A stretch of DNA of 63,681 bases, counting the filler, from an uncultured Methanosarcinales archaeon (GTDB lineage: Archaea > Nanobdellota > Nanobdellia > Woesearchaeales > GW2011-AR9), in the NCBI GenBank assembly GCA_964434885.1. It is 5 parts of 5 records of this genome, joined end to end, with 100 filler letters (N's around TTAATTAATTAA, not from the genome) between each part and the next. Parts side by side here need not be neighbours in the genome. Positions count along the whole stretch, not along the records: positions 26,526 to 39,028 come from CAYSWQ010000026.1; 4 more parts are not named here. One strand, given 5' to 3'. The position numbers and the translations under genes were made by a program. Below the pieces are notes generated by a model. That model was not told the DNA's origin. It made no database searches and saw nothing but the letters and a program-made list of their open reading frames with translations. Of the stretch, positions 29,363 through 38,477 are shown piece after piece (position 1 is the stretch's first letter; each line of letters begins with the position of its first letter).

Positions 29363-29674
29363 ATGAACTTAATAACATTATTTGCAGGAGCCGGACTATT
29401 CGTAACGGCAGGAGATCTCATCTTGGCCCAATGGGCCAGGACTAGCAATTGGTCTTTGTTAGCTATTGGCCTGGTCCTTAATTTATTAGGGATTGTTTGT
29501 TATGCCAACACCCTTCGTTTTACTGGAGTAGGAATAGCTACCGCAATATTCCTTGGGGTAAATATTTTAGCAGTTGCTCTAGGAGGAATGTTATTTTTTC
29601 GAGAGACTCTTTCCTTCAGGACAATTGCAGGATTGGTTTTTTTGTTGACTGCGATAGTGTTGGTAGAGGTGTAA
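29363..29674 (+). CDS. SMR/DMT-family small 4-TM transporter
   Basis: 103 aa, four TM helices, G..FF.E.LS....G..L motif; contains no Lys. Confidence 0.85.
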   Translation: MNLITLFAGAGLFVTAGDLILAQWARTSNWSLLAIGLVLNLLGIVCYANTLRFTGVGIATAIFLGVNILAVALGGMLFFRETLSFRTIAGLVFLLTAIVLVEV

Positions 29675-29712
29675 TCTAGTCAAATAGACTTAAAATGTGG
29701 AGATAACAGAAA

Positions 29713-30780
29713 ATGACAACACAATTAATTGATCAAGTAATAGTTGGAAGTTCCGACCAAGAAATATTATTTAGAGGGTCACCTTTATATTGGGAAACAA
29801 CAAGAAATACTAGTTTAGGAATTAATGAATTAGATTTTCTTTCAATTAATCTTAGACCTATTTGCAATTATCGTTGTGAGTCTTGTTTTTCAGGAATGGG
29901 CACGCCTCAGGAAATAACTGGAACTTTGACTACAGAAGAAATACAAAATTTGATTAGCCAAGCTAGAGAATTAGGGGTTTTATCTATTGAAATTTCTGGA
30001 GAAGGAGAACCTTTGGTAGACCGAAGAAGACTTGAAGAAATAATTCAGTACAATAATCAACTAGGGATCATTACTACTCTTTTTTCTAATGGGTCATTAC
30101 TAGATAGAGAAATTTTAGAATACTTTGCTGATAACAATGTTTCTTTAGCAATTAGTATGGATTATTTTGATCAAAGTGATTACGAACAACATAATTGTCA
30201 AGATGGGTCGTTTGATAACATAATGCGAAATATCAATTTAGCTAGGGAAATTTATTCTCAACATCAAGAAGAAGAAAATGATTATCAAATCAGAAGATTG
30301 GCTATTCATTCAGTGGCTAATGCTAGAAATTTAAATCAGCTTCATTTAATTGCAGAATTTTGTGCTGAAGATATATTTTACAGTATTGCCCCATTAGCTA
30401 ATGTTGGTAACGCAACTGAACATCCTGAATTAATTCAAATGGATCAAGAAAGTATACAACAGATTATTAGTAAGTACTCTGATGGAAATTTAATTTTGTC
30501 AGATTCAGCAAGAGAAGAACACGGTCAAGATTTGTGTGGAACTTTCATTTATGGAATTGGTATTAGGCATGATGGTGAAGTGTTGTTTGATGCTCATGCA
30601 TTTGATACTGCTGGGATAATTGGAAATATTAGGGATTTTGAATTAAGAAATTTAATCCAAAGACAGAGAGAAGTTAGAACTTTATTTTATGAACAGTTTG
30701 CTACTTCTGGATTTTGTCCTTTAAGAGATCCCAACTATCAAACTTTTGTCCAACATCTCATGGGTGGTTTAGATGTGTGA
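29713..30780 (+). CDS. Radical SAM enzyme (Lys-depleted)
   Basis: CNYRCESC, SGEGEPL and SNG motifs; Twitch-like C-terminal Cys; one Lys in 355 aa. Confidence 0.9.
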   Translation: MTTQLIDQVIVGSSDQEILFRGSPLYWETTRNTSLGINELDFLSINLRPICNYRCESCFSGMGTPQEITGTLTTEEIQNLISQARELGVLSIEISGEGEPLVDRRRLEEIIQYNNQLGIITTLFSNGSLLDREILEYFADNNVSLAISMDYFDQSDYEQHNCQDGSFDNIMRNINLAREIYSQHQEEENDYQIRRLAIHSVANARNLNQLHLIAEFCAEDIFYSIAPLANVGNATEHPELIQMDQESIQQIISKYSDGNLILSDSAREEHGQDLCGTFIYGIGIRHDGEVLFDAHAFDTAGIIGNIRDFELRNLIQRQREVRTLFYEQFATSGFCPLRDPNYQTFVQHLMGGLDV

Positions 30781-31630
30781 GCAAACAGAACAAATTGAAA
30801 CAATAATCCAACAACATCTCAATGGAAATTATTCGGATTCATTAACTCGGTTTAGTTATTTGAATGGGGGAGCAGAACAATTTATTAGATTAACTCAAAA
30901 TCCAGATTATACTAGTTATGATCGAGAATTAAATTTAATTCAAAATGTTTTACCCTTTCTTCAAAATTTAGATAGTTTACAAATAATTGATTTTGGGGTG
31001 GGTGATGGTCGAAAGATGAATTTGATAATTCCTAACTTATCGAATGTATCTTATCTTGGCCTAGATATCAGTCCTGCCATGATTGATTTTGCTCGAGATG
31101 ATAATAACTATAGAACCAACTATTTCCTTTATGATTTTAGTGATGTTGCAGAATTACAGAATCTCTTTCATTCATTACCACAACCTCGTTTGATAACAAT
31201 GCTGGGAAACACAATCACTAATGAAATTGATGTGGGAAATTATTTAGAATCTCTGAGAACATTAGATTCAAATTATTTGTTGATTGGTTTGGAATTATTC
31301 CAAGATAATACGGATGAAATAGTCAGAGAATATAGATCTGAAGAGAACTATAATCTCACATTTAAACCATTAGAAATGATTGGAATTCCAAGAAGCCATG
31401 GAGATATAGAAATAAATTATAATTCTGAACAGCAAAGAATTGAAGAATGGTTTGTTTTTAATACCTCTGGACAAATAAAAGATATTCAATATCGATCTGG
31501 AGATCAGATTTTATTATCTGTCACCCATAAACCAACTTTTGAACAAATCCAAGAGATAATTCATAATAGTGGGTGGAATGAAGAAGTAACAATAGTAGAT
31601 GAAAGTTATGCTTTATTTTTACTTTCATAA
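30773..31630 (+). CDS. EgtD-like (Methyltransf_33) amino-acid N-methyltransferase
   Basis: DFGVGDG.K, LDIS..M, LGNT..N, LIG.EL and YN....RIE pattern typical of the EgtD family. Confidence 0.8.
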   Translation: MCEQTEQIETIIQQHLNGNYSDSLTRFSYLNGGAEQFIRLTQNPDYTSYDRELNLIQNVLPFLQNLDSLQIIDFGVGDGRKMNLIIPNLSNVSYLGLDISPAMIDFARDDNNYRTNYFLYDFSDVAELQNLFHSLPQPRLITMLGNTITNEIDVGNYLESLRTLDSNYLLIGLELFQDNTDEIVREYRSEENYNLTFKPLEMIGIPRSHGDIEINYNSEQQRIEEWFVFNTSGQIKDIQYRSGDQILLSVTHKPTFEQIQEIIHNSGWNEEVTIVDESYALFLLS

Positions 31631-31640
31631 AATTCTTGAG

Positions 31641-32093
31641 TCATTTCTCATGAATAACTACCAAAGACTGTGTCTTGTCAATCCCTTTTATTTTTTGTAA
31701 TTTTTTTAACAAGAAATTATCATATGCTTCAACATCTTTAATTCTAACTCTCACTACAATATCTGTTCCTCCAGTAACTACATCAACTTTGGTAATCTCT
31801 GGCAGCCTTTTCAATTCTTGTGCTAGCTGATGTTGATCTTTCTTTAATTCTCTTAATAATTTATAGTCAACAGAAACCATAATAATTACCGAAAAACCTT
31901 TCTCGACTTTTTTATGATCTAGATCAATAGTAAATTTCTTAATAATCTTTTCTTTCTTTAATTTTCTTATCCGATTATGGATAGTAGTTACCGGCAATAA
32001 TGTCTTTTTAGCGATCTGCCGAGTAGTATAATCTCCGTGTTCTTCCAAAACTTCAATGATTTTTTGGTCTTTCTCGTCTAATTTATAGCCCAT
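31641..32093 (-). CDS. Lrp/AsnC-family transcriptional regulator
   Basis: LDEKD.KI...L, IA.......T.HNRI.KL and VTG..D motifs; divergent from the asnA operon. Confidence 0.93.
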   Translation of the reverse strand: MGYKLDEKDQKIIEVLEEHGDYTTRQIAKKTLLPVTTIHNRIRKLKKEKIIKKFTIDLDHKKVEKGFSVIIMVSVDYKLLRELKKDQHQLAQELKRLPEITKVDVVTGGTDIVVRVRIKDVEAYDNFLLKKLQKIKGIDKTQSLVVIHEK

Positions 32094-32095
32094 AA

Positions 32096-32111
32096 TGGAA
32101 CAAATGTTCCA
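32096..32111. promoter_or_regulatory. Palindromic operator candidate (AsnC/Lrp box)
   Basis: TGGAACA-AA-TGTTCCA, with further TTCC-N7/8-GGA(A) sites in the same intergenic region. Confidence 0.5.
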
Positions 32112-32261
32112 AATAGTATATAAATCTTTCTATTTTTTATCATATTTTCCATTATTTTGGAGATATACTTATTAATAAATTCCCCTTTTGGAATAGTATA
32201 ACTAAAAAAGATACGTAACGGATGTCTAAGACATCTAATCGATCTACCGGAGGAAAATAAA

Positions 32262-32762
32262 ATGACAACAGATTTTACAATTTACACAAAAATAACAGCG
32301 CCTGATTGCACCAGTTTAGGATGGGCTATCGGAGATGCAACTGGGGAAAGAGCGGCCAAAACTAGATATTGTGGGGGAGCCACTGGAATTAGAGCGGTAA
32401 TTGTTGATACAAGTAAAGTATCTCCCGAAACTGCAGCAAGCTTTACCCCAAAATCTATTGATCGTATTGAAGGGTTATATTTAGGGGCAGAAAAGATGGT
32501 TTCTGAATTAGATAGACATTTGCCAACTGGTAGTATTATTAGTTTGCGAGGAAGCTGGGCCCCTTGGGAATTAGGAAGTTCTTGGATGCCTGGTTATGGA
32601 GAAAGACCCATAGAAGAAAGGAGATTTCTTGAGGAAGCATTATCTAGTTCTCATTTGGCCGATTTTTTTCCAGTTGGGGCAGCAGATAGGGAAACTAGGA
32701 TTATGGGAATTATCCCAGAATATATCAAAGCCAGTAGCTTAAAATTGGAGGAAATAAAATGA
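32262..32762 (+). CDS. Hypothetical protein, first gene of the asnA operon (no Asn or Gln)
   Basis: GGAGG SD; 166 aa. Confidence 0.75.
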   Translation: MTTDFTIYTKITAPDCTSLGWAIGDATGERAAKTRYCGGATGIRAVIVDTSKVSPETAASFTPKSIDRIEGLYLGAEKMVSELDRHLPTGSIISLRGSWAPWELGSSWMPGYGERPIEERRFLEEALSSSHLADFFPVGAADRETRIMGIIPEYIKASSLKLEEIK

Positions 32763-32875
32763 AATCAGAAATCGATAAAAAATATAAAGAAGAATGTAGC
32801 ACTTTGTTAGAAATCAGAGAAGAGATTGAATCAAAGACAACATCTGGAATGCTGCCTTGGCGTAGTATTTCATAA
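32759..32875 (+). CDS. 38-aa small protein in the asnA operon (no Asn)
   Basis: GGAGG SD and ATGA overlap; MKSEIDKKYKEECSTLLEIREEIESKTTSGMLPWRSIS. Confidence 0.55.
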   Translation: MKSEIDKKYKEECSTLLEIREEIESKTTSGMLPWRSIS

Positions 32876-32893
32876 AAAAGGAGGAATAATAAA

Positions 32894-33922
32894 ATGAAAA
32901 TCTTACCACAAACATACAAACCAAAACTAGATTTTTTCGAAACTGAAAAAGCAATTAAGTTAGTGAAAGATACATTCGAGAAAAAACTAGCGGATAAACT
33001 GAAATTACTAAGAGTTTCTGCTCCTAGGTTCCTAAAAACTGGAAAAGGTTTACAAGATGATTTAGCTGGAACACAAACCCCTGTTGGTTTTAAAGTTGGT
33101 TTTACTGACAAGCGCTTAGAAATAGTTCATAGTTTAGCGAAGTGGAAAAGATTTGCTCTAGGAAAATATGGTTTCAAATTAGGTACTGGTCTGTATACAG
33201 ACATGGATGCTATCAGAAAAGATGAAGAACCTGATGCAATTCATAGTTTGTATGTTGATCAATGGGATTGGGAAAGAGTAATTTCTAAAGAAGAAAGATC
33301 AATTCCTTTTCTCAAAGATATTGTCAAAAAAATTTACGAAGCCTTACTAGAAACAGAGTCAAAAGTAGAAACCATTTTCCCTACACTCTCAGCTAGCCTA
33401 CCAAAAGAAATCACTTTCATTCACTCAGAAGAAGCAGAAGGACTCTATCTAAAATTATCTCCCAAAGAAAGAGAATCTGCTTTAGCCAAAGAATATGGTG
33501 CAGTTTTTCTAATTGGTATTGGTCACCCATTAAAATCTGGAGAACCGCACGATTTAAGAGCAGCTGACTATGATGATTGGTCTACAGAGACTTTAGCAGG
33601 CAAAAGAGGCTTGTGCGGAGATATCTTGGTCTGGGATAAAGTAAGAGAAGAAGTCTTAGAATTGTCTTCGATGGGAATCAGAGTTGACGCCTCAGCATTA
33701 TTAAAACAATTAGAAATGATGGACTTAATCCAAAAAAAAGAATTAGATTTTCACAAAGCAGTAATCGATGATAAAATTCCTTTATCTATTGGTGGGGGAA
33801 TTGGACAATCTCGGATCTGTATGTTTTTGTTACAAAAAGCCCATATTGGAGAAGTACAAAGCTCAGTTTGGCCAAGAGTAGTTGTGGAAGAGTTTGAAAA
33901 GAAGAAGATTCCTTTACTTTAA
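32894..33922 (+). CDS. asnA: Aspartate--ammonia ligase (asparagine synthetase A)
   Basis: EIVHSLAKWKR, HS.YVDQWDWE, HD.RA.DYDDW, ELSSMGIRVD and IGGGIGQSR motifs. Confidence 0.96.
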   Translation: MKILPQTYKPKLDFFETEKAIKLVKDTFEKKLADKLKLLRVSAPRFLKTGKGLQDDLAGTQTPVGFKVGFTDKRLEIVHSLAKWKRFALGKYGFKLGTGLYTDMDAIRKDEEPDAIHSLYVDQWDWERVISKEERSIPFLKDIVKKIYEALLETESKVETIFPTLSASLPKEITFIHSEEAEGLYLKLSPKERESALAKEYGAVFLIGIGHPLKSGEPHDLRAADYDDWSTETLAGKRGLCGDILVWDKVREEVLELSSMGIRVDASALLKQLEMMDLIQKKELDFHKAVIDDKIPLSIGGGIGQSRICMFLLQKAHIGEVQSSVWPRVVVEEFEKKKIPLL

Positions 33923-33959
33923 CCATAACTTTATATATTGTTTTTATTTTATTTATACT

Positions 33960-34229
33960 ATGATGAATGCAAAAGAAGTTGAGAATGAAATTAGTCAAAT
34001 AAAAGTTAGAAATAAAAAAGTTGAAAGAGACAAGGCTTGGGAAACAAGTTGGTCAAGGAAAGTTTTAATAGTGATTTTAACATATATTGTAATCGTCATC
34101 TTTTTTTACTTTGCTGGATTACCAAAACCATTCATCAATTCAATTGTTCCTGCAGTAGCTTTTGTCTTATCCACAGCCACATTACCACTTTTTAAGAAAT
34201 GGTGGTTAAATATAATTTACAGGAAGTAA
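33960..34229 (+). CDS. Small two-TM membrane protein
   Basis: RN.KVE.DKAWETSW.R followed by two TM helices. Confidence 0.75.
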   Translation: MMNAKEVENEISQIKVRNKKVERDKAWETSWSRKVLIVILTYIVIVIFFYFAGLPKPFINSIVPAVAFVLSTATLPLFKKWWLNIIYRK

Positions 34230-34263
34230 AATTTTATAAAAACAAACAAAATAACTAAGAAAA

Positions 34264-35559
34264 ATGAAATTCCAATCAATTCAAGAAGCTATGAAAAAAG
34301 GTTCAGGTCAAGTATCAATTCGAGGTTGGGTACACCGAGAAAGAGGTTCTAACAAATTAAAATTTATTGTTTTAAGAGATGTTTCTAATACCATTCAATG
34401 TGTTTTGAAAAGAGATCAGTTTGAACAAGAATGGGAAGAAATTGATAAAATTCAAATTGAAACTTCTATAGAAATCACAGGAGAAATCAAAAAAGACGAA
34501 AGAGCCCCTACTGGATATGAAATCCAAGTTAAAGAATTTAAAATCGTCGGAAAAAGCGACAATTACCCAATTACTAAAGATCAATCTGTAGAATTTCTAG
34601 CAGACAACCGACATCTATGGTTAAGATCTAGAAAGATGACTAATATCTTAAAAATCAGAAGTACAGTCTTTCAAGCCATTGATGAATATTTTAAGAAAGA
34701 AAACTTTTACGAATACCATTCACCTATTTTTCAATCAGTTCAGTGTGAAGGTGGATCAACATTATTCAATGTACCTTATTACAACAAAAAAGGAGTTTTT
34801 CTAGGACAAACCTGGCAACTATACGCCGAACCAGCCATTTTCGCACTAGAAAAAATTTACACCATTTCTCCTTCTTTCCGAGCTGAAAAAAGCAGAACTA
34901 GTAGACATCTTTCCGAATACTGGCATGCTGAAATGGAAGCCGCCTGGATTACTTTTGATCAATTACAAGATTACGGTGAAGCGTTAGTTAAATATGTATT
35001 CAAAAAAGTACTAGATACCAATCAAAAAGAATTGGAAGAATTAGGCAGAGATCTCAAAAAAATCAAACCAATTATTGAAAAACCATTCAAAAGAATGACT
35101 TACACTGAAGCAATTGAACTTCTAGATAAGAAATGTGATATGAAAGTAGCTTGGGGAAAAGATTTGAGAACTATTGAAGAAGACAAACTTACTAGTCTTT
35201 ACGATGTCCCTATCATTGTTACTAGGTATCCAAAAGAAGTTAAGGCTTTTTACATGACTGAAGATCCAGAAGATCCAAGAGTGGTTTTAGGATTTGATTT
35301 ATTAGCTCCAGAAGGTCACGGAGAAATCATTGGTGCTTCCGATCGAGAACCAGATATAGAAAAAATCAAACAAAGATTGAAAGAAGATAACGAAGATCCT
35401 AAAGAATACACTTTTTACTTAGATACTAGAAAGTATGGGTCTGTCCCTCACGCTGGTTTTGGTCTAGGAGTAGAAAGAGTTATTAAGTGGGTTTGTGGTT
35501 TGGATAACATCAAAGACACTATTCCTTTTCCGAGAACGATGGAGAGATATAGACCTTAA
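34264..35559 (+). CDS. asnS: Asparaginyl-tRNA synthetase
   Basis: OB-fold RGWV, RHLWLRS, EGGSTLF, FRAEKSRTSRHL.EYW..E and PHAGFGLG.ER motifs. Confidence 0.93.
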   Translation: MKFQSIQEAMKKGSGQVSIRGWVHRERGSNKLKFIVLRDVSNTIQCVLKRDQFEQEWEEIDKIQIETSIEITGEIKKDERAPTGYEIQVKEFKIVGKSDNYPITKDQSVEFLADNRHLWLRSRKMTNILKIRSTVFQAIDEYFKKENFYEYHSPIFQSVQCEGGSTLFNVPYYNKKGVFLGQTWQLYAEPAIFALEKIYTISPSFRAEKSRTSRHLSEYWHAEMEAAWITFDQLQDYGEALVKYVFKKVLDTNQKELEELGRDLKKIKPIIEKPFKRMTYTEAIELLDKKCDMKVAWGKDLRTIEEDKLTSLYDVPIIVTRYPKEVKAFYMTEDPEDPRVVLGFDLLAPEGHGEIIGASDREPDIEKIKQRLKEDNEDPKEYTFYLDTRKYGSVPHAGFGLGVERVIKWVCGLDNIKDTIPFPRTMERYRP

Positions 35560-38477
35560 CGAATCAAATAACCTTTATCTTTTCTCAAAAAAGAAACTGC
35601 CAACTCTAATTTAAATTTATTCTCAGCATAAACAGTGTAAAGAATATCTCCTTTTTTCACTTTATCTCCTACTTTGCGATTGATATACATTCCTGCCCCT
35701 TTATCCCCTGGTGCTCCAGCAATTCTGGCAATCTTAGCAATAATTTTGTTGTCAATTCCTTTAATTTTACCTGCCTTATTACTTTTAATTATTCGTTTAA
35801 ACTCCCCTACCTTCACTCTTCTCACTCTTCCTTGGGATTTGATAATCTGGTTCATTTTAACTAATGCTTTACCAGATTCTAATATCTCTGAAGCTTTGGC
35901 AATACCTTGACGTAAAGAGTATTTACCAGTCATTTTTAACAAAGTTCCAGCCATATACAAAGCTTTCTTTTTCAAATCCTCTGGCGCTAAAACATCATCT
36001 TTAAGCACCGCCATTACATCTAAAGATTCTAATAAAGGACCAATTCCAAAACCGATTGGTTGGGTTCCATCAGTAATAATCACTTTTACTTTCATATCTA
36101 ATTTTTCACCAATCTTCTCAAACATTTTCTTCAAACGCTTTGCTTGTTGTCGATTCTTGGCTTTTACTTGCGGACCCATGGGGATGTCAATCAAAACATA
36201 ATTCGCAGAAACAGAATATTTTTTAGCCATTACTGAAGCTAACAATTGTCCTTCCGCATCAATTGACAAAGGATGTTCCACTTCAATAATCTTATCGTCA
36301 GCTGGAGCTAGATTCATTGATCCACCATGAACAACACAAGCCCCAGTTTTTCTAATCACTTCTTTAATTTTATTCTGAGATAATTCTACTTTCGCTAAAC
36401 ATTCCATTGTATCTGCAGTTCCGGCCGGAGAAGTGATTGCCCGAGAACTGGTTTTGGGAACAGTAAAACCAGCAGCTGCTAAAATTGGGATAACTAACAT
36501 GGTTGTTCTATTTCCAGGAACTCCCCCGATACAATTATGGACAGCCATCGGAGCGGTTCCAGCCATGAATTTATTATATCCTTCCACATAAAAATCATAA
36601 ACATGCTTAGTATCTGAGTCAATTGTTCTATTCTCTTTCACGGGTAAAACAGATAGATTTCCATTGACAAATTTTTGAATATCTGGGCTGGGAAAAGCAT
36701 AATAAAAATCTTTAAGCTTGTTTTTTGTAATGAATTTTTGTCTTTTCAAAGTTCTTCTAAATTCCCAACCGACATTTTTATCTTCTACTGGCCCTAATTC
36801 ATTAATTGGAAGTAAATTAACAAAAGATACATTTGCCTTTTCTCTTTTGCCATAGATCTCTCTGGCTTGAGTATAAATATAAAAACTTTCTCCAACAGCA
36901 TATTCACCAGTCGGAAACATTCTTTTCCCTTTGCCTTTGTAAGACAAAGAAACAGAAATTCCCAATAATGAGAGTAAATATTGTAAATCCAAATACAATT
37001 GTTTGGATGCAGTAACATAAATGGCTTCATAACCTCTCCGAACATAACCATCACATTTAAACAATGCTTGCAAAAATTCTAATTGCAACTCTCTGTCTAA
37101 ATCAAAAACAAATGAAGGGATATTTTTTTCTAAAGCATTCTTTCCAGCTTTTATCCTTTCATTAAATAATTTTGATGTTAGCTGTGAATAAACAGTAACT
37201 CTAGTAGCAGTTTCATGAGGAATATTGATTGTTGGGCTAAAACCTAGGACTTTTTCTACACACTTTTTTGCATCTTCAATAAGATCTTTTTCATGAGAAC
37301 CAAAGTTAAGATAAATTCCTTGATCATTTGTAAAACCTTCAGCAATATAATAGGCCAACAACTTGACAAATTCTGAATTGATTTTTATATTTTCAAATCT
37401 TTTATGTCTTCCATTTTCAAACCAGTTTTCATCAATTTCAATCTCTTGCAAAGGAGAGGAATACTTCTCGAAGCCAGTGGGAACAACCACAAAATCATTT
37501 TGATTTAAGTCTTTAGCTGGAATATTTGTTATTTTTCCATTTTTCAGAGTAAACACAGTATGATCGGAAGTAATTTTGATTTTTCTGTTTCCTAACAAAG
37601 TTATTTCTTGTAGTTTTTTTGGAGATTTTACTCTGAAAAAACCGGAAACTGGAGCAAATTTTACCTTGCCATTTCCTTCAAAGGTTAAAACTTGAATATT
37701 TTTTGGATTTTTTTCTAAATACTCAGCTCCATCCTTCCAAGTAACATCCTCTGGGCTATTTTCGAAGAGATTGTCAATTACATGTCCAATATTTCTAATC
37801 TTGACTTTGGAACTATTTCGAATTATAACTGGAACNNNNNNNNNNTCAGCAGTTCCAGCAGGACTAGTAATAGCACGAGAGCTAGTTTTTGGCATTGTTA
37901 ATCCAAGCGAAGCGACAATTGGAATAATAATCATAGAAGTCCTATTGTTAGGTACTCCTCCGATACAGTGTTTGTCTAAAGTTAATCCAGGAAATTTTAA
38001 TTTCTGACCAGTATTTACCATGGCTTTAGTCATGTCGATTACTTCATCCACATGCCAACCATGAACAAAACCCGCAGAAACAAAATAGGTTTTTTCAATA
38101 TCTGTTAAACGATCATGAGTGATATCATCAATAATATGGAAGATATCTTGGTAACTTAATTTTTTACCAAATAATTTTTCTCTAATATGGATAACTGATT
38201 CTGGCTTACCGGTAAATTTTAGAGTGATTGTAGCTCCTCTTTTAATTTTTAATTTATCTAGAACTTCTTCAAACAATCCAATTTTTCCAACCGGTACTGC
38301 TTTTTTACTTTCAGAAATATCTAATACGCAAGTAGTTTCGTGTTTTCCATTCCGAACTACAACCCGGTCTCCAGAACTTAAATCTAAACGTTCTGCATCT
38401 TTAATATTTAGAATGGCGATTAGAATACCTCCACTAGTAATATCCATATCCTTTACTTTAAATTTCATATTCGCCAT
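35556..38477 (-). CDS. AMP phosphorylase (thymidine phosphorylase family) with intein; spans a gap and looks chimeric
   Basis: DKHCIGGVP, PKTSSRAITSPAGTAD, LAPADD and QP.G..IGP.LE motifs; the post-insertion extein segment appears twice. Confidence 0.88.
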   Translation of the reverse strand: MANMKFKVKDMDITSGGILIAILNIKDAERLDLSSGDRVVVRNGKHETTCVLDISESKKAVPVGKIGLFEEVLDKLKIKRGATITLKFTGKPESVIHIREKLFGKKLSYQDIFHIIDDITHDRLTDIEKTYFVSAGFVHGWHVDEVIDMTKAMVNTGQKLKFPGLTLDKHCIGGVPNNRTSMIIIPIVASLGLTMPKTSSRAITSPAGTAXXXXVPVIIRNSSKVKIRNIGHVIDNLFENSPEDVTWKDGAEYLEKNPKNIQVLTFEGNGKVKFAPVSGFFRVKSPKKLQEITLLGNRKIKITSDHTVFTLKNGKITNIPAKDLNQNDFVVVPTGFEKYSSPLQEIEIDENWFENGRHKRFENIKINSEFVKLLAYYIAEGFTNDQGIYLNFGSHEKDLIEDAKKCVEKVLGFSPTINIPHETATRVTVYSQLTSKLFNERIKAGKNALEKNIPSFVFDLDRELQLEFLQALFKCDGYVRRGYEAIYVTASKQLYLDLQYLLSLLGISVSLSYKGKGKRMFPTGEYAVGESFYIYTQAREIYGKREKANVSFVNLLPINELGPVEDKNVGWEFRRTLKRQKFITKNKLKDFYYAFPSPDIQKFVNGNLSVLPVKENRTIDSDTKHVYDFYVEGYNKFMAGTAPMAVHNCIGGVPGNRTTMLVIPILAAAGFTVPKTSSRAITSPAGTADTMECLAKVELSQNKIKEVIRKTGACVVHGGSMNLAPADDKIIEVEHPLSIDAEGQLLASVMAKKYSVSANYVLIDIPMGPQVKAKNRQQAKRLKKMFEKIGEKLDMKVKVIITDGTQPIGFGIGPLLESLDVMAVLKDDVLAPEDLKKKALYMAGTLLKMTGKYSLRQGIAKASEILESGKALVKMNQIIKSQGRVRRVKVGEFKRIIKSNKAGKIKGIDNKIIAKIARIAGAPGDKGAGMYINRKVGDKVKKGDILYTVYAENKFKLELAVSFLRKDKGYLIR
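36534..37835 (-). mobile_element. Intein with LAGLIDADG homing endonuclease, inserted at the KH|CIGG site; N-terminal residues lost in the gap
   Basis: Block B IT.DH.VF, LAYYIAEG and FLQALFKCDG blocks, block F VYDFYV, and terminal HN followed by Cys+1. Confidence 0.92.
37836..37845. other. 10-N scaffold gap within the AMP phosphorylase
   Basis: N run without linker. Confidence 0.95.

Follow-up and report, generated by a model that had tools for sequence, protein, structure and literature searches.

The divergent pairing of asnC with asnA is classical in bacteria such as Escherichia coli. Cognate bias of amino-acid biosynthetic enzymes was reportedly treated by Alves and Savageau in 2005. A passage of a later paper (Fasani and Savageau 2014, PMC4209129) gives the principle, namely that an enzyme making an amino acid contains little of it, which leaves synthesis possible in starvation, and names Asn as the amino acid with the strongest low cognate bias (median −3.1, P 1e-166, 1790 organisms). 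For Woesearchaeota, a passage of another paper (PMC11606122) lists asnA in nine of nine metagenome-assembled genomes, most other amino-acid pathways being undetected, and expression of asparagine synthase in five. The locus described here, at positions 32,094–33,922 of a 63,681-nucleotide stretch of DNA (the window) from an uncultured archaeon (assembly GCA_964434885.1), is an asnA operon in which neither asnA nor the two open reading frames (ORFs) ahead of it, ORF166 and ORF38, contains a single Asn codon.

The window consists of joined contigs of a 1.07-Mb assembly (31.7% GC, 66 contigs, 92% complete), and the asparagine locus sits on the 12.5-kb contig C26. DNA identical to the stretch is present in marine and seawater metagenome contigs from runs of two studies, and the source names on the closest AsnA and ORF166-family proteins include Candidatus Woesearchaeota and Nanoarchaeota; the organism is a marine DPANN archaeon of Woesearchaeota type. 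Apparently it synthesises hardly any amino acids. Its genome encodes GatD and two AsnB-like proteins, and a search of it for glutamine synthetase (glnA) found none.

An asnA operon without asparagine codons

The translated products of ORF166, ORF38 and asnA, with 166, 38 and 342 residues, contain no Asn in 546 residues, as the preliminary description of the locus had noticed, in a genome where Asn makes up 5.24% of residues; at that frequency the absence has a probability of 1.7e-13. The genome-wide figures come from a greedy, non-overlapping set of 1173 ORFs of at least 60 residues drawn from the whole assembly, which is a heuristic set and not a curated gene call, and the statistics on absence use the 991 ORFs of at least 100 residues. 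Just two of the 991 are free of Asn, the adjacent ORF166 and AsnA, and the next lowest content is 0.68%, so that zero-Asn proteins are a rarity here and not a general property of the genome. About 18 Asn would be expected in the 342 residues of AsnA, which makes the enzyme a case of cognate bias, and their absence is the least probable single-amino-acid absence among all these ORFs (log10 P = −8.0); for ORF38 taken singly it is insignificant (P = 0.13). AsnA has 35% GC, a native GC content at third codon positions (GC3), nine Gln and 40 Lys (11.7%). Since Lys and with it the AAR codons are retained at a normal level, the loss is specific to AAY codons. ORF166 and ORF38 are also free of Gln, which is missing from 14 of the 991 ORFs, and ORF166 is the only one to lack both Asn and Gln.

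AsnA scores 318.1 bits against PF03590 (cut-off 27) and 379 bits against TIGR00669 (cut-off 292.8; residues 14–335). It aligns over its full length with the solved AsnA structures 9v83 (E 4.2e-112) and, from E. coli, 11AS (E 9.9e-91), and in these alignments the conserved blocks HSLAKWKR, YVDQWDWE, SSMGIRVD and IGGGIGQSR are intact. The same comparison bears out the earlier remark that the usual Asn positions are replaced: the window enzyme reads GLQDDLAG, TDMDAIR and GLCGDILVWD, 9v83 reads GLNDDLNG, TDMNAIR and GLNCDIIVWN, and 11AS has GTQDNLSG and GLNGDILVWN. The near-invariant Asn of the GL-N-GD motif is therefore Cys in the window (GLCGD). Among 130 sequences with the motif this position is Asn in 112, Asp in 12 and Cys in six; it provides the sole Asn in 51 of 53 one-Asn AsnA proteins, and in the zero-Asn proteins it is occupied by Asp (11) or Cys (five, the window included).

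Most AsnA proteins of the order are likewise low in Asn. Searches located AsnA in 12 of 61 close relatives and, across the order, in 35 of 401 genomes; the comparison covers 36 loci of the order, of which 34 have a full-length AsnA (one start is unrefined and one gene is cut by a contig end). Ten of the 34 contain no Asn, nine contain one, six two and two three, so that 25 have at most two; the others have 5, 6, 7 and 8 (once each), 12 (twice) and 15 (once). The best 120 of 8000 scored AsnA homologues, a set that overlaps the 36 loci, include 15 with no Asn, 50 with one and 81 with two or fewer. For reference, three Asn are present in the 320 aligned residues of E. coli AsnA and 17 in the 9v83 enzyme. 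The pooled Asn content of the 36 loci is 0.77% in AsnA, 2.04% in AsnS, 3.64% in the regulator and 4.01% in other flanking ORFs.

The three cistrons are tightly spaced (Table 1). The ORF166 stop overlaps the ORF38 start by four nucleotides (ATGA), the 18-nucleotide spacer between ORF38 and asnA contains a GGAGG, and this Shine-Dalgarno sequence stands about 8–13 nucleotides before the ATG of all three, whereas genome-wide, among 796 ORFs of 150 residues or more, just 28 have it. ORF166, ORF38 and asnA are probably one AsnC-controlled transcript because a conserved AsnC-type promoter lies upstream of ORF166; it is the promoter position, the 4- and 18-nucleotide spacing and the Shine-Dalgarno sites that together point to co-transcription. 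As all three cistrons are without Asn codons, ribosomes can read the whole mRNA without Asn-tRNA(Asn).

Table 1. Features of the asparagine locus and its surroundings (positions in the window)
Feature	Position	Strand	Evidence or remarks
Lys-poor cluster, three consecutive genes	29363–31630	+
Lrp/AsnC-family regulator, 150 aa, 2 Asn, divergent from the operon	31641–32093	−	Pfam domains
Box 1, palindrome TGGAACA-N2-TGTTCCA	32096–32111		7-nt arms, 100% complementary; abuts regulator start codon
TATA-like box, ~25 nt from regulator ATG	32117–32124		sequence reading; ATATAAAT-type element conserved in aligned intergenic regions
Box 2, imperfect palindrome TTCCA-N5-TGGA	32147–32161		just 5' of the operon TATA box
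TATA-like box 2 (CTTATTAATAAA)	32168–32179	+	proposed ORF166-ORF38-asnA promoter, by positional homology
Palindrome GATGTCT-N-AGACATC in the predicted 5' leader	32221–32235	+	unique in genome; overlaps the upstream ORF (uORF)
uORF, 12 codons	32222–32260	+	in the predicted 5' leader
ORF166, orphan, 166 aa, 0 Asn, 0 Gln	32262–32762	+	codon usage, homologues; GGAGG 32249–32253
ORF38, micro-ORF, 38 aa	32759–32875	+	GGAGG 32747–32751; stop 18 nt before asnA ATG
asnA, aspartate-ammonia ligase, 342 aa, 0 Asn	32894–33922	+	PF03590, TIGR00669; GGAGG 32880–32884
Oligo-T tract (T5, T4, T3)	33941–33954	+	19 nt past asnA stop; candidate archaeal terminator
Small membrane-protein ORF	33960–34229	+	TATA-like box of its own ~25 nt upstream
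asnS, asparaginyl-tRNA synthetase type, 431 aa	34264–35559	+	PF00152 + PF01336
973-aa ORF	35556–38477	−

The locus is probably an operon for asparagine starvation, driven by a promoter under the divergent Lrp/AsnC-family regulator. The regulator would control the promoter of ORF166, ORF38 and asnA, and AsnA (Asp + NH3 + ATP -> Asn) would be the organism's Asn route for the adjacent asparaginyl-tRNA synthetase (AsnRS). Being translatable from a zero-Asn state, AsnA would avoid the catch-22 addressed by cognate bias, and ribosomes would not stall in the upstream cistrons, which would otherwise uncouple or destabilise the message ahead of asnA; ORF166 would be required, or at any rate produced, in the absence of Asn. 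Selection that favours translation without Asn, as proposed in the preliminary description, remains the best account of a loss that is AAY-specific, recurs in the order and reaches a near-invariant Asn, and it is also backed by the Asn-poor genes found behind the same promoter in relatives and by an Asn-rich asparaginase behind a related regulator.

Regulator, promoter and target genes in relatives

The divergent gene encodes both Lrp/AsnC domains, PF13404 (HTH_AsnC-type, 3.9e-11, residues 5–46) and PF01037 (AsnC_trans_reg, 7.9e-18, residues 82–148), and with the palindromes at box 1 and in the leader (Table 1) it agrees with the Lrp/AsnC regulator and palindromic boxes first described. The label AsnC reflects family and genomic context, and responsiveness to Asn is suggested by the target genes. 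Box 1, which is unique in the genome and stands in the same place in most related loci listed, is a probable autoregulatory operator, and the regulator mRNA would be leaderless. Most related loci listed have an element like box 2 just ahead of their second TATA box. The homologous second TATA box lies 25–50 nucleotides before asnA or the first target gene in relatives, and in the window it precedes ORF166 rather than asnA; transcription of the operon would be expected to start near 32200.

The intergenic layout is conserved. In 12 related loci (11 of the family-level sample and L015) the order is regulator ATG, box 1, TATA-like box, CTATTTTT stretch, box 2, TATA-like box and first target, the target gene lying 25–50 nucleotides or more downstream of the second TATA-like box. 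Statements on L015 (genome G218) and on L041 (G280) depend on unpublished genomes. With one mismatch allowed, box 1 had matches in 220 of the 401 genomes scanned, but none of 30 examined loci had an asnC, asnA or asnS homologue, and the count, mostly chance, was dropped. Rfam gave no match in 31600–34300 at E ≤ 1. The short uORF in the predicted leader has one Asn codon; its last codons form the GGAGG of ORF166 and its stop lies one base before the ORF166 ATG. It lacks a separate ribosome-binding site and could be open by chance.

Regulator homologues at E ≤ 1e-30 occur in 29 of the 61 relatives and are commoner than asnA, with 38–82% identity among the matches listed. Flanks are readable in 29 loci, where the promoter is followed first by asnA in 11, an asnB-type synthetase in four, with 2/471, 5/460, 4/447 and 2/455 Asn (0.4–1.1%), and AsnRS in six, where the enzymes of L087 and L089 have no Asn in the 250 and 209 residues inside the locus. 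AsnRS-like genes follow in three, comprising catalytic-core-only paralogues (L104, L107) and one with the anticodon-binding domain (L103). An asparaginase, found in one locus, is Asn-rich (15/163, 9%), so that Asn-related targets account for 25 of the 29 loci. Single loci have a RelA/SpoT homologue (4% Asn), a 278-residue ORF without Asn and without assigned family followed by peptide deformylase, a tRNA-editing-like ORF, and no clear gene. Genes behind this promoter type that supply Asn are Asn-poor and the one that degrades it is Asn-rich, and this contrast argues most strongly that the regulator responds to Asn and that the selection is connected with Asn supply. Loci in which the regulator faces other targets are L091, L095, L096, L099, L102, L104, L107, L108 and L088.

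The same dependence is seen in genes placed between the regulator promoter and asnA, which are present in six of the 36 loci. In the window these are ORF166 (0 Asn in 166 residues) and ORF38 (0/38), with 0 Asn in AsnA. L004 has an unrelated ORF164 (0/164; positions 2379–2873 of that locus) and a micro-ORF (0/30), and L041 a LysE-type translocator (PF01810, 6e-25; 0/201) and an ORF (0/49), again with an Asn-free AsnA in both. The remaining three carry a member of an unannotated family, here called the X family, with 2/215 (L048), 5/193 (L027) and 13/237 Asn (L013) where the AsnA has 3, 12 and 15, respectively. The Asn content of genes in this slot tracks that of their AsnA in the six loci, which suggests that the constraint follows the promoter, or regulon, and not the enzyme alone.

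X family proteins (188–252 residues; L011, L013, L027, L048, L087, L089 and L098) share the invariant blocks C-x-E-K, G-T-x-T-P-F and D-x-S-x-G-G and lie between an AsnC-type promoter and asnA or AsnRS, or, in L011, between asnA and asnS. Five of the six AsnRS genes mentioned above are preceded by an unannotated ORF of roughly 190–250 residues. One member has a sub-threshold tRNA_edit match (E 0.036), and a 306-residue ORF in the same slot of L090 scores 4e-4. No match was found to PDB sequences, and comparison with ORF166 gave no homology (hhalign probability 0.06%). Its members may act as trans-editing-like factors associated with AsnRS.

Several observations weigh against an asparagine-starvation operon. 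The AsnA proteins of L013, L025 and L027 are undepleted, with 12–15 Asn, and the pressure thus depends on lineage. The two AsnB-like genes of the genome, at 5.7% and 7.0% Asn, are not Asn-poor. Gln is missing from ORF166, ORF38, the ORF166 relative P0002 and the unrelated ORF164 of L004, whereas AsnA proteins retain 5–19, and Asn starvation does not account for this; a link to amide-nitrogen shortage, with GatD present and no glnA found, is only a thought. ORF166 is Lys-poor (4.8%) with a high GC content at second codon positions (GC2), so that its general composition could account for some of the Asn deficit. The regulator scores 63.5 bits against the AsnC equivalog NF008384 of NCBIfam, well below the cut-off of 227. 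AT-rich TATA-like strings occur within ORF38 (around 32776–32790), and an internal asnA promoter there is possible. Finally, the related genomes, both the 61 close relatives and the 401 of the order, are kin and hence non-independent samples.

ORF38, leader ORFs and the ORF166 family

Micro-ORFs with their own ribosome-binding site end 14–37 nucleotides before asnA in the window and in L004, L007 and L009, that is, in four of the eight asnA loci of the same taxonomic family. When aligned without gaps from the stop codon, the four share the C-terminal motif G-x4-R-x-[IL]-[SC]-stop, with G at −9, R at −4, I/L at −2 and S/C at −1, although their AsnA proteins are merely ~70% identical; these are closely related loci and too few for statistics. 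As L007 and L009 have the micro-ORF without an ORF166-like gene, it belongs with asnA. The probable role of ORF38 is to couple asnA translationally or to control it.

A 190-nucleotide variant contig from two runs covers 32804–32991 and represents a second, diverged strain or species at the ORF38-asnA junction (19 substitutions and a 2-nucleotide deletion in 188 nucleotides), which co-occurs with the exact window sequence in runs of both. ORF38 has three replacements in it (T27K, T28I and R35C) along with three synonymous changes. Of these, only R35C, at a variable residue, and two silent changes fall inside the nine-residue span of the motif; T27K, T28I and one synonymous change fall just upstream. 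asnA has two replacements and seven synonymous changes, the deletion lies in the spacer, and both frames are open and Asn-free.

A regulatory role of the nascent ORF38 peptide would suit this arrangement: ribosomes pausing near the stop codon, perhaps in response to Asn, would mask the asnA ribosome-binding site 5–9 nucleotides downstream. Such an arrest peptide, which would be compatible with the asparagine-starvation operon, has in its favour the GGAGG of ORF38, the close stop codon, the fixed motif spacing despite AsnA divergence and the sparing of the motif in the variant. It is nevertheless a rather unlikely proposal, as there are just four related examples, ORF38 could be a small protein with a function of its own, and the ORF38 stretch can form a 10-bp hairpin in a single-sequence fold, so that conservation could act at the level of RNA instead of peptide. 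The spacer that leads from ORF38 to asnA contains no T-run. A complex prediction for AsnA with ORF38, run without controls, scored 0.00 and is evidence neither way.

Other families of the order have a different kind of leader upstream of asnA. In six of the 36 loci (L005, L034, L047, L042, L037 and L025), at least two of the final six residues of a leader ORF of 20–42 codons are Asn, and several of these ORFs end in Asn-Asn; mononucleotide shuffles give a mean of 1.37 such loci (P about 0.001), and the reverse-complement control gives two. In L005, L034 and L047, which belong to one family, the leader stop is followed by a conserved GC-rich hairpin of the GAGCAA-TTGCTC type. These ORFs look like attenuator-type leaders in archaea.

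ORF166 has very few relatives. An exhaustive phmmer search of 1.84 billion representatives gave one, P0002 (161 residues; pairwise E 4e-19, full-length identity 29%), and a profile search of the 401 genomes of the order added P0003 (111 residues, G218), publicly named a Woesearchaeota hypothetical protein. The family profile returned only these three members from 5.8 billion clustered proteins, and all three are Asn-free. The preliminary description had proposed profile and structure searches of ORF166; as carried out here, they gave no match in Pfam, NCBIfam or PHROG, none for the three-member profile among PDB sequences (best E 0.42), and no usable match in the ESM Atlas for ORF166 itself (P0001). 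Single-protein searches found no relative in the 60 close relatives, a word-based protein search returned only ORF166, metagenome contig scans found none, and the genome-contig scan gave only a 16-residue chance match in L014. The ORF164 of L004 was considered as a relative and rejected (BLASTP E 0.18, hhalign probability 0.2%); its weak genome matches (E about 0.004) fell inside an unrelated 638-residue ORF.

P0003 is the second gene of a two-gene unit, following an Asn-free membrane ORF of 65 residues. The unit stands behind box 1, box 2 and TATA and adjoins a 62%-identical regulator, and a search of this genome (89% complete) found no AsnA match. The ORF166 family is thus tied to the regulator rather than to AsnA, and as it is Asn-free even with no downstream asnA to protect, the protein itself would seem to be needed in starvation. 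Of the co-occurrence with asnA and asnC that the preliminary description had proposed to check, that with the regulator type is borne out and that with asnA is not: the window is the only one of 36 asnA loci with an ORF166 homologue. Likewise, the claim that composition implicates the two ORFs in Asn homeostasis stands as far as their placement in an AsnC-controlled unit is concerned, with further evidence from the homologue P0003, which has this promoter in a genome that yielded no asnA; composition alone reveals no function, since any cistron of the unit would be under the same codon constraint.

ORF166 or ORF38, or both, could instead be subunits or partners of AsnA, for ammonia or aspartate delivery or for regulation of the enzyme, in line with the shared operon, tight spacing and common composition. 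P0002 and an 83%-identical AsnA, P0007, both have a longest listed contig of 10489 bases and may be neighbours, which is circumstantial. The scarcity of ORF166 homologues beside asnA, with none in the 60 close relatives and one in the 400 other genomes of the order, makes such a partnership improbable, as do the genome with P0003 and no AsnA match, and the lack of any amidotransferase or other family signal for ORF166 and ORF38 in Pfam and NCBIfam.

Structure prediction gives a lead on the function of ORF166. A single-sequence AlphaFold2 model (predicted local distance difference test, pLDDT, 38.8) was discarded; with three sequences the values are low (pLDDT 51.4, predicted template-modelling score 0.53), and the order of elements is strand-strand-strand-helix-strand-helix. 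Foldseek returned nothing at E ≤ 0.001 for this model, its top rows being RNase H1 and uS11, with E values from 5e-3 to 5e-2 (best 4.6e-3). An alignment-independent structure search (VIA), for which Z 7–8 is typical even for models without a true match, placed the Argonaute PIWI domain 1yvu_A first (Z 9.8, root-mean-square deviation 2.5, 98 residues), then uS11 9evs_J (Z 9.3), with Pelota/aRF1 central domains, RuvC, integrases and actin-like ATPases as further matches, so that the best matches are all RNase-H-like folds. For P0002 the ESM Atlas gave scores of just 0.78–0.81, the nearest Pfam-bearing clusters being RNase H (0.78).

RNase-H-fold nucleases have their first catalytic Asp at the end of strand 1. 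In the three ORF166-family members the end of the predicted strand 1 is K, R and R, read by position in a low-confidence model, and their alignment has no invariant Asp or Glu, so the catalytic acidic residues of RNase H are missing and the family is probably not a nuclease. A non-catalytic RNase-H-like fold is a weak hint from the model, a lead rather than a result, and its action as a factor on RNA, tRNA or the ribosome is tentative. A broader and somewhat more doubtful proposal is that the Asn regulon of DPANN archaea holds undescribed starvation devices linked to translation, with ORF166 as a non-catalytic RNase-H-like factor that would be produced solely in the absence of Asn and act on ribosome, tRNA or mRNA, and with micro-ORFs that would sense Asn through the ribosome, of which the ORF38 type would act via its C-terminal peptide and the Asn-Asn leaders with hairpin would do the same job in sister lineages.

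The low-confidence models, the lack of family matches and the extreme rarity of ORF166 would also be expected if ORF166 were a decaying insertion or a fortuitous reading frame within a leader RNA, structured or regulatory, in which case Asn-freeness would concern AsnA only. This is very improbable. The codon log-likelihood of ORF166 is 0.427 per codon in its own frame, within the genome range (mean 0.359, standard deviation 0.112), and negative in the five other frames (including −0.30 and −0.66). GC3 is native (0.26; genome 0.21, standard deviation 0.04) and GC2 is 0.52, so that the raised overall GC of 40.8% stems from amino-acid composition and not from foreign origin. A GGAGG lies at −13 to −9, the homologues (29–38% identity) keep an open frame of similar length, Rfam gave no match, and a random open frame of 166 codons at this composition has an estimated chance of about 3e-5. 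ORF166 looks like a genuine, lineage-restricted gene of the Asn regulon.

That base composition, recent horizontal transfer or chance produced the absence of Asn, as the GC of ORF166 (against 31.7% in the genome) and its few Lys might suggest, is close to refuted by the probability given above, by the native composition of AsnA, and by the repetition of the pattern across dozens of AsnA proteins from DPANN archaea and across unrelated genes that follow the promoter, with its reversal in the asparaginase.

Neighbouring genes, significance and known systems

Downstream of asnA the oligo-T tract resembles the oligo-T known as an archaeal termination signal. The preliminary description placed asnS just downstream; it lies 342 nucleotides 3' of asnA, beyond this tract and the small membrane-protein ORF, and has its own TATA-like box ~25–26 nucleotides upstream, so it is probably a separate leaderless transcript. 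AsnS has 11 Asn (2.6%, 8th percentile).

The neighbouring operon, described at first as Lys-free, turned out to be Lys-poor instead. Against 10.5% Lys genome-wide, an EamA/SMR-like membrane protein has 0 Lys in 103 residues, a radical SAM protein 1 in 355, and a Methyltransf_33 protein, similar to histidine-specific methyltransferases, 4 in 285. By the same logic the cluster may be a Lys-starvation unit. The 973-residue ORF on the other side of the locus contains a run of N at 37836–37845, and a block of ~40 residues (…CIGGVP.NRT…TSPAGTA) is repeated on either side of a long intein- or homing-endonuclease-like insert. It is either an intein-interrupted host gene or an assembly join.

The locus offers an unusually clean natural experiment for cognate bias, with an absolute constraint that overrides a near-invariant enzyme residue. 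It suggests a rule by which, in reduced genomes, a gene cluster fully without one amino acid marks the starvation regulon of that amino acid, which may give a physiological context to the ORF166 family, to the X family beside AsnRS and to the Lys-poor cluster. Asn supply would then be a recurrent bottleneck for host-dependent DPANN archaea. The micro-ORFs and Asn-ending leaders are candidate ribosome-sensing leader ORFs in Archaea, and control by a leader or arrest peptide, if true, would as far as known be the first of amino-acid synthesis in this domain. The principle of cognate bias is already published; the extent seen here, the orphan ORF166 family and the micro-ORFs are new. In titles and abstracts and in passages of two papers, no description was found of a complete absence of Asn that includes the last conserved one, of a bias covering every cistron and the whole target set of a regulator in archaea, or of the ORF166 family and the asnA micro-ORFs.

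RNase-H-like proteins such as the Argonaute PIWI domain, uS11, the Pelota/aRF1 central domain and RuvC resemble the ORF166 model in the order of strands and helices. ORF166 differs from them in having no membership at the sequence level, a low-confidence model and K/R/R at the position of the catalytic Asp.

The trp and his attenuators and arrest peptides such as TnaC and the fungal arginine attenuator peptide (see also PMC1183508) share with ORF38 a short ORF directly before a biosynthetic gene and a conserved peptide end. In contrast to the classical attenuators, ORF38 has no cognate Asn codon and is thus not one of them, whereas the uORF has one.

The E. coli asnC-asnA pair, whose regulator family is named in PMC8707732 and PMC4875751, is similar in the divergent Lrp/AsnC regulator beside asnA, in the palindromes of the shared intergenic region and in an AsnA that is also Asn-poor. 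The window differs in being archaeal, with TATA-type promoters and a predicted leaderless regulator mRNA, in a regulator below the AsnC cut-off, and in the two extra cistrons before asnA; elsewhere the same regulator type faces asnB or AsnRS.

Cognate bias itself is shared in that AsnA, the maker of Asn, is low in it. Here, however, the bias is absolute (0/342), the near-invariant Asn is lost, all cistrons are affected including those that are not enzymes, and in relatives it follows the targets of one regulator, namely asnA, asnB, AsnRS, a transporter and genes without assigned function.

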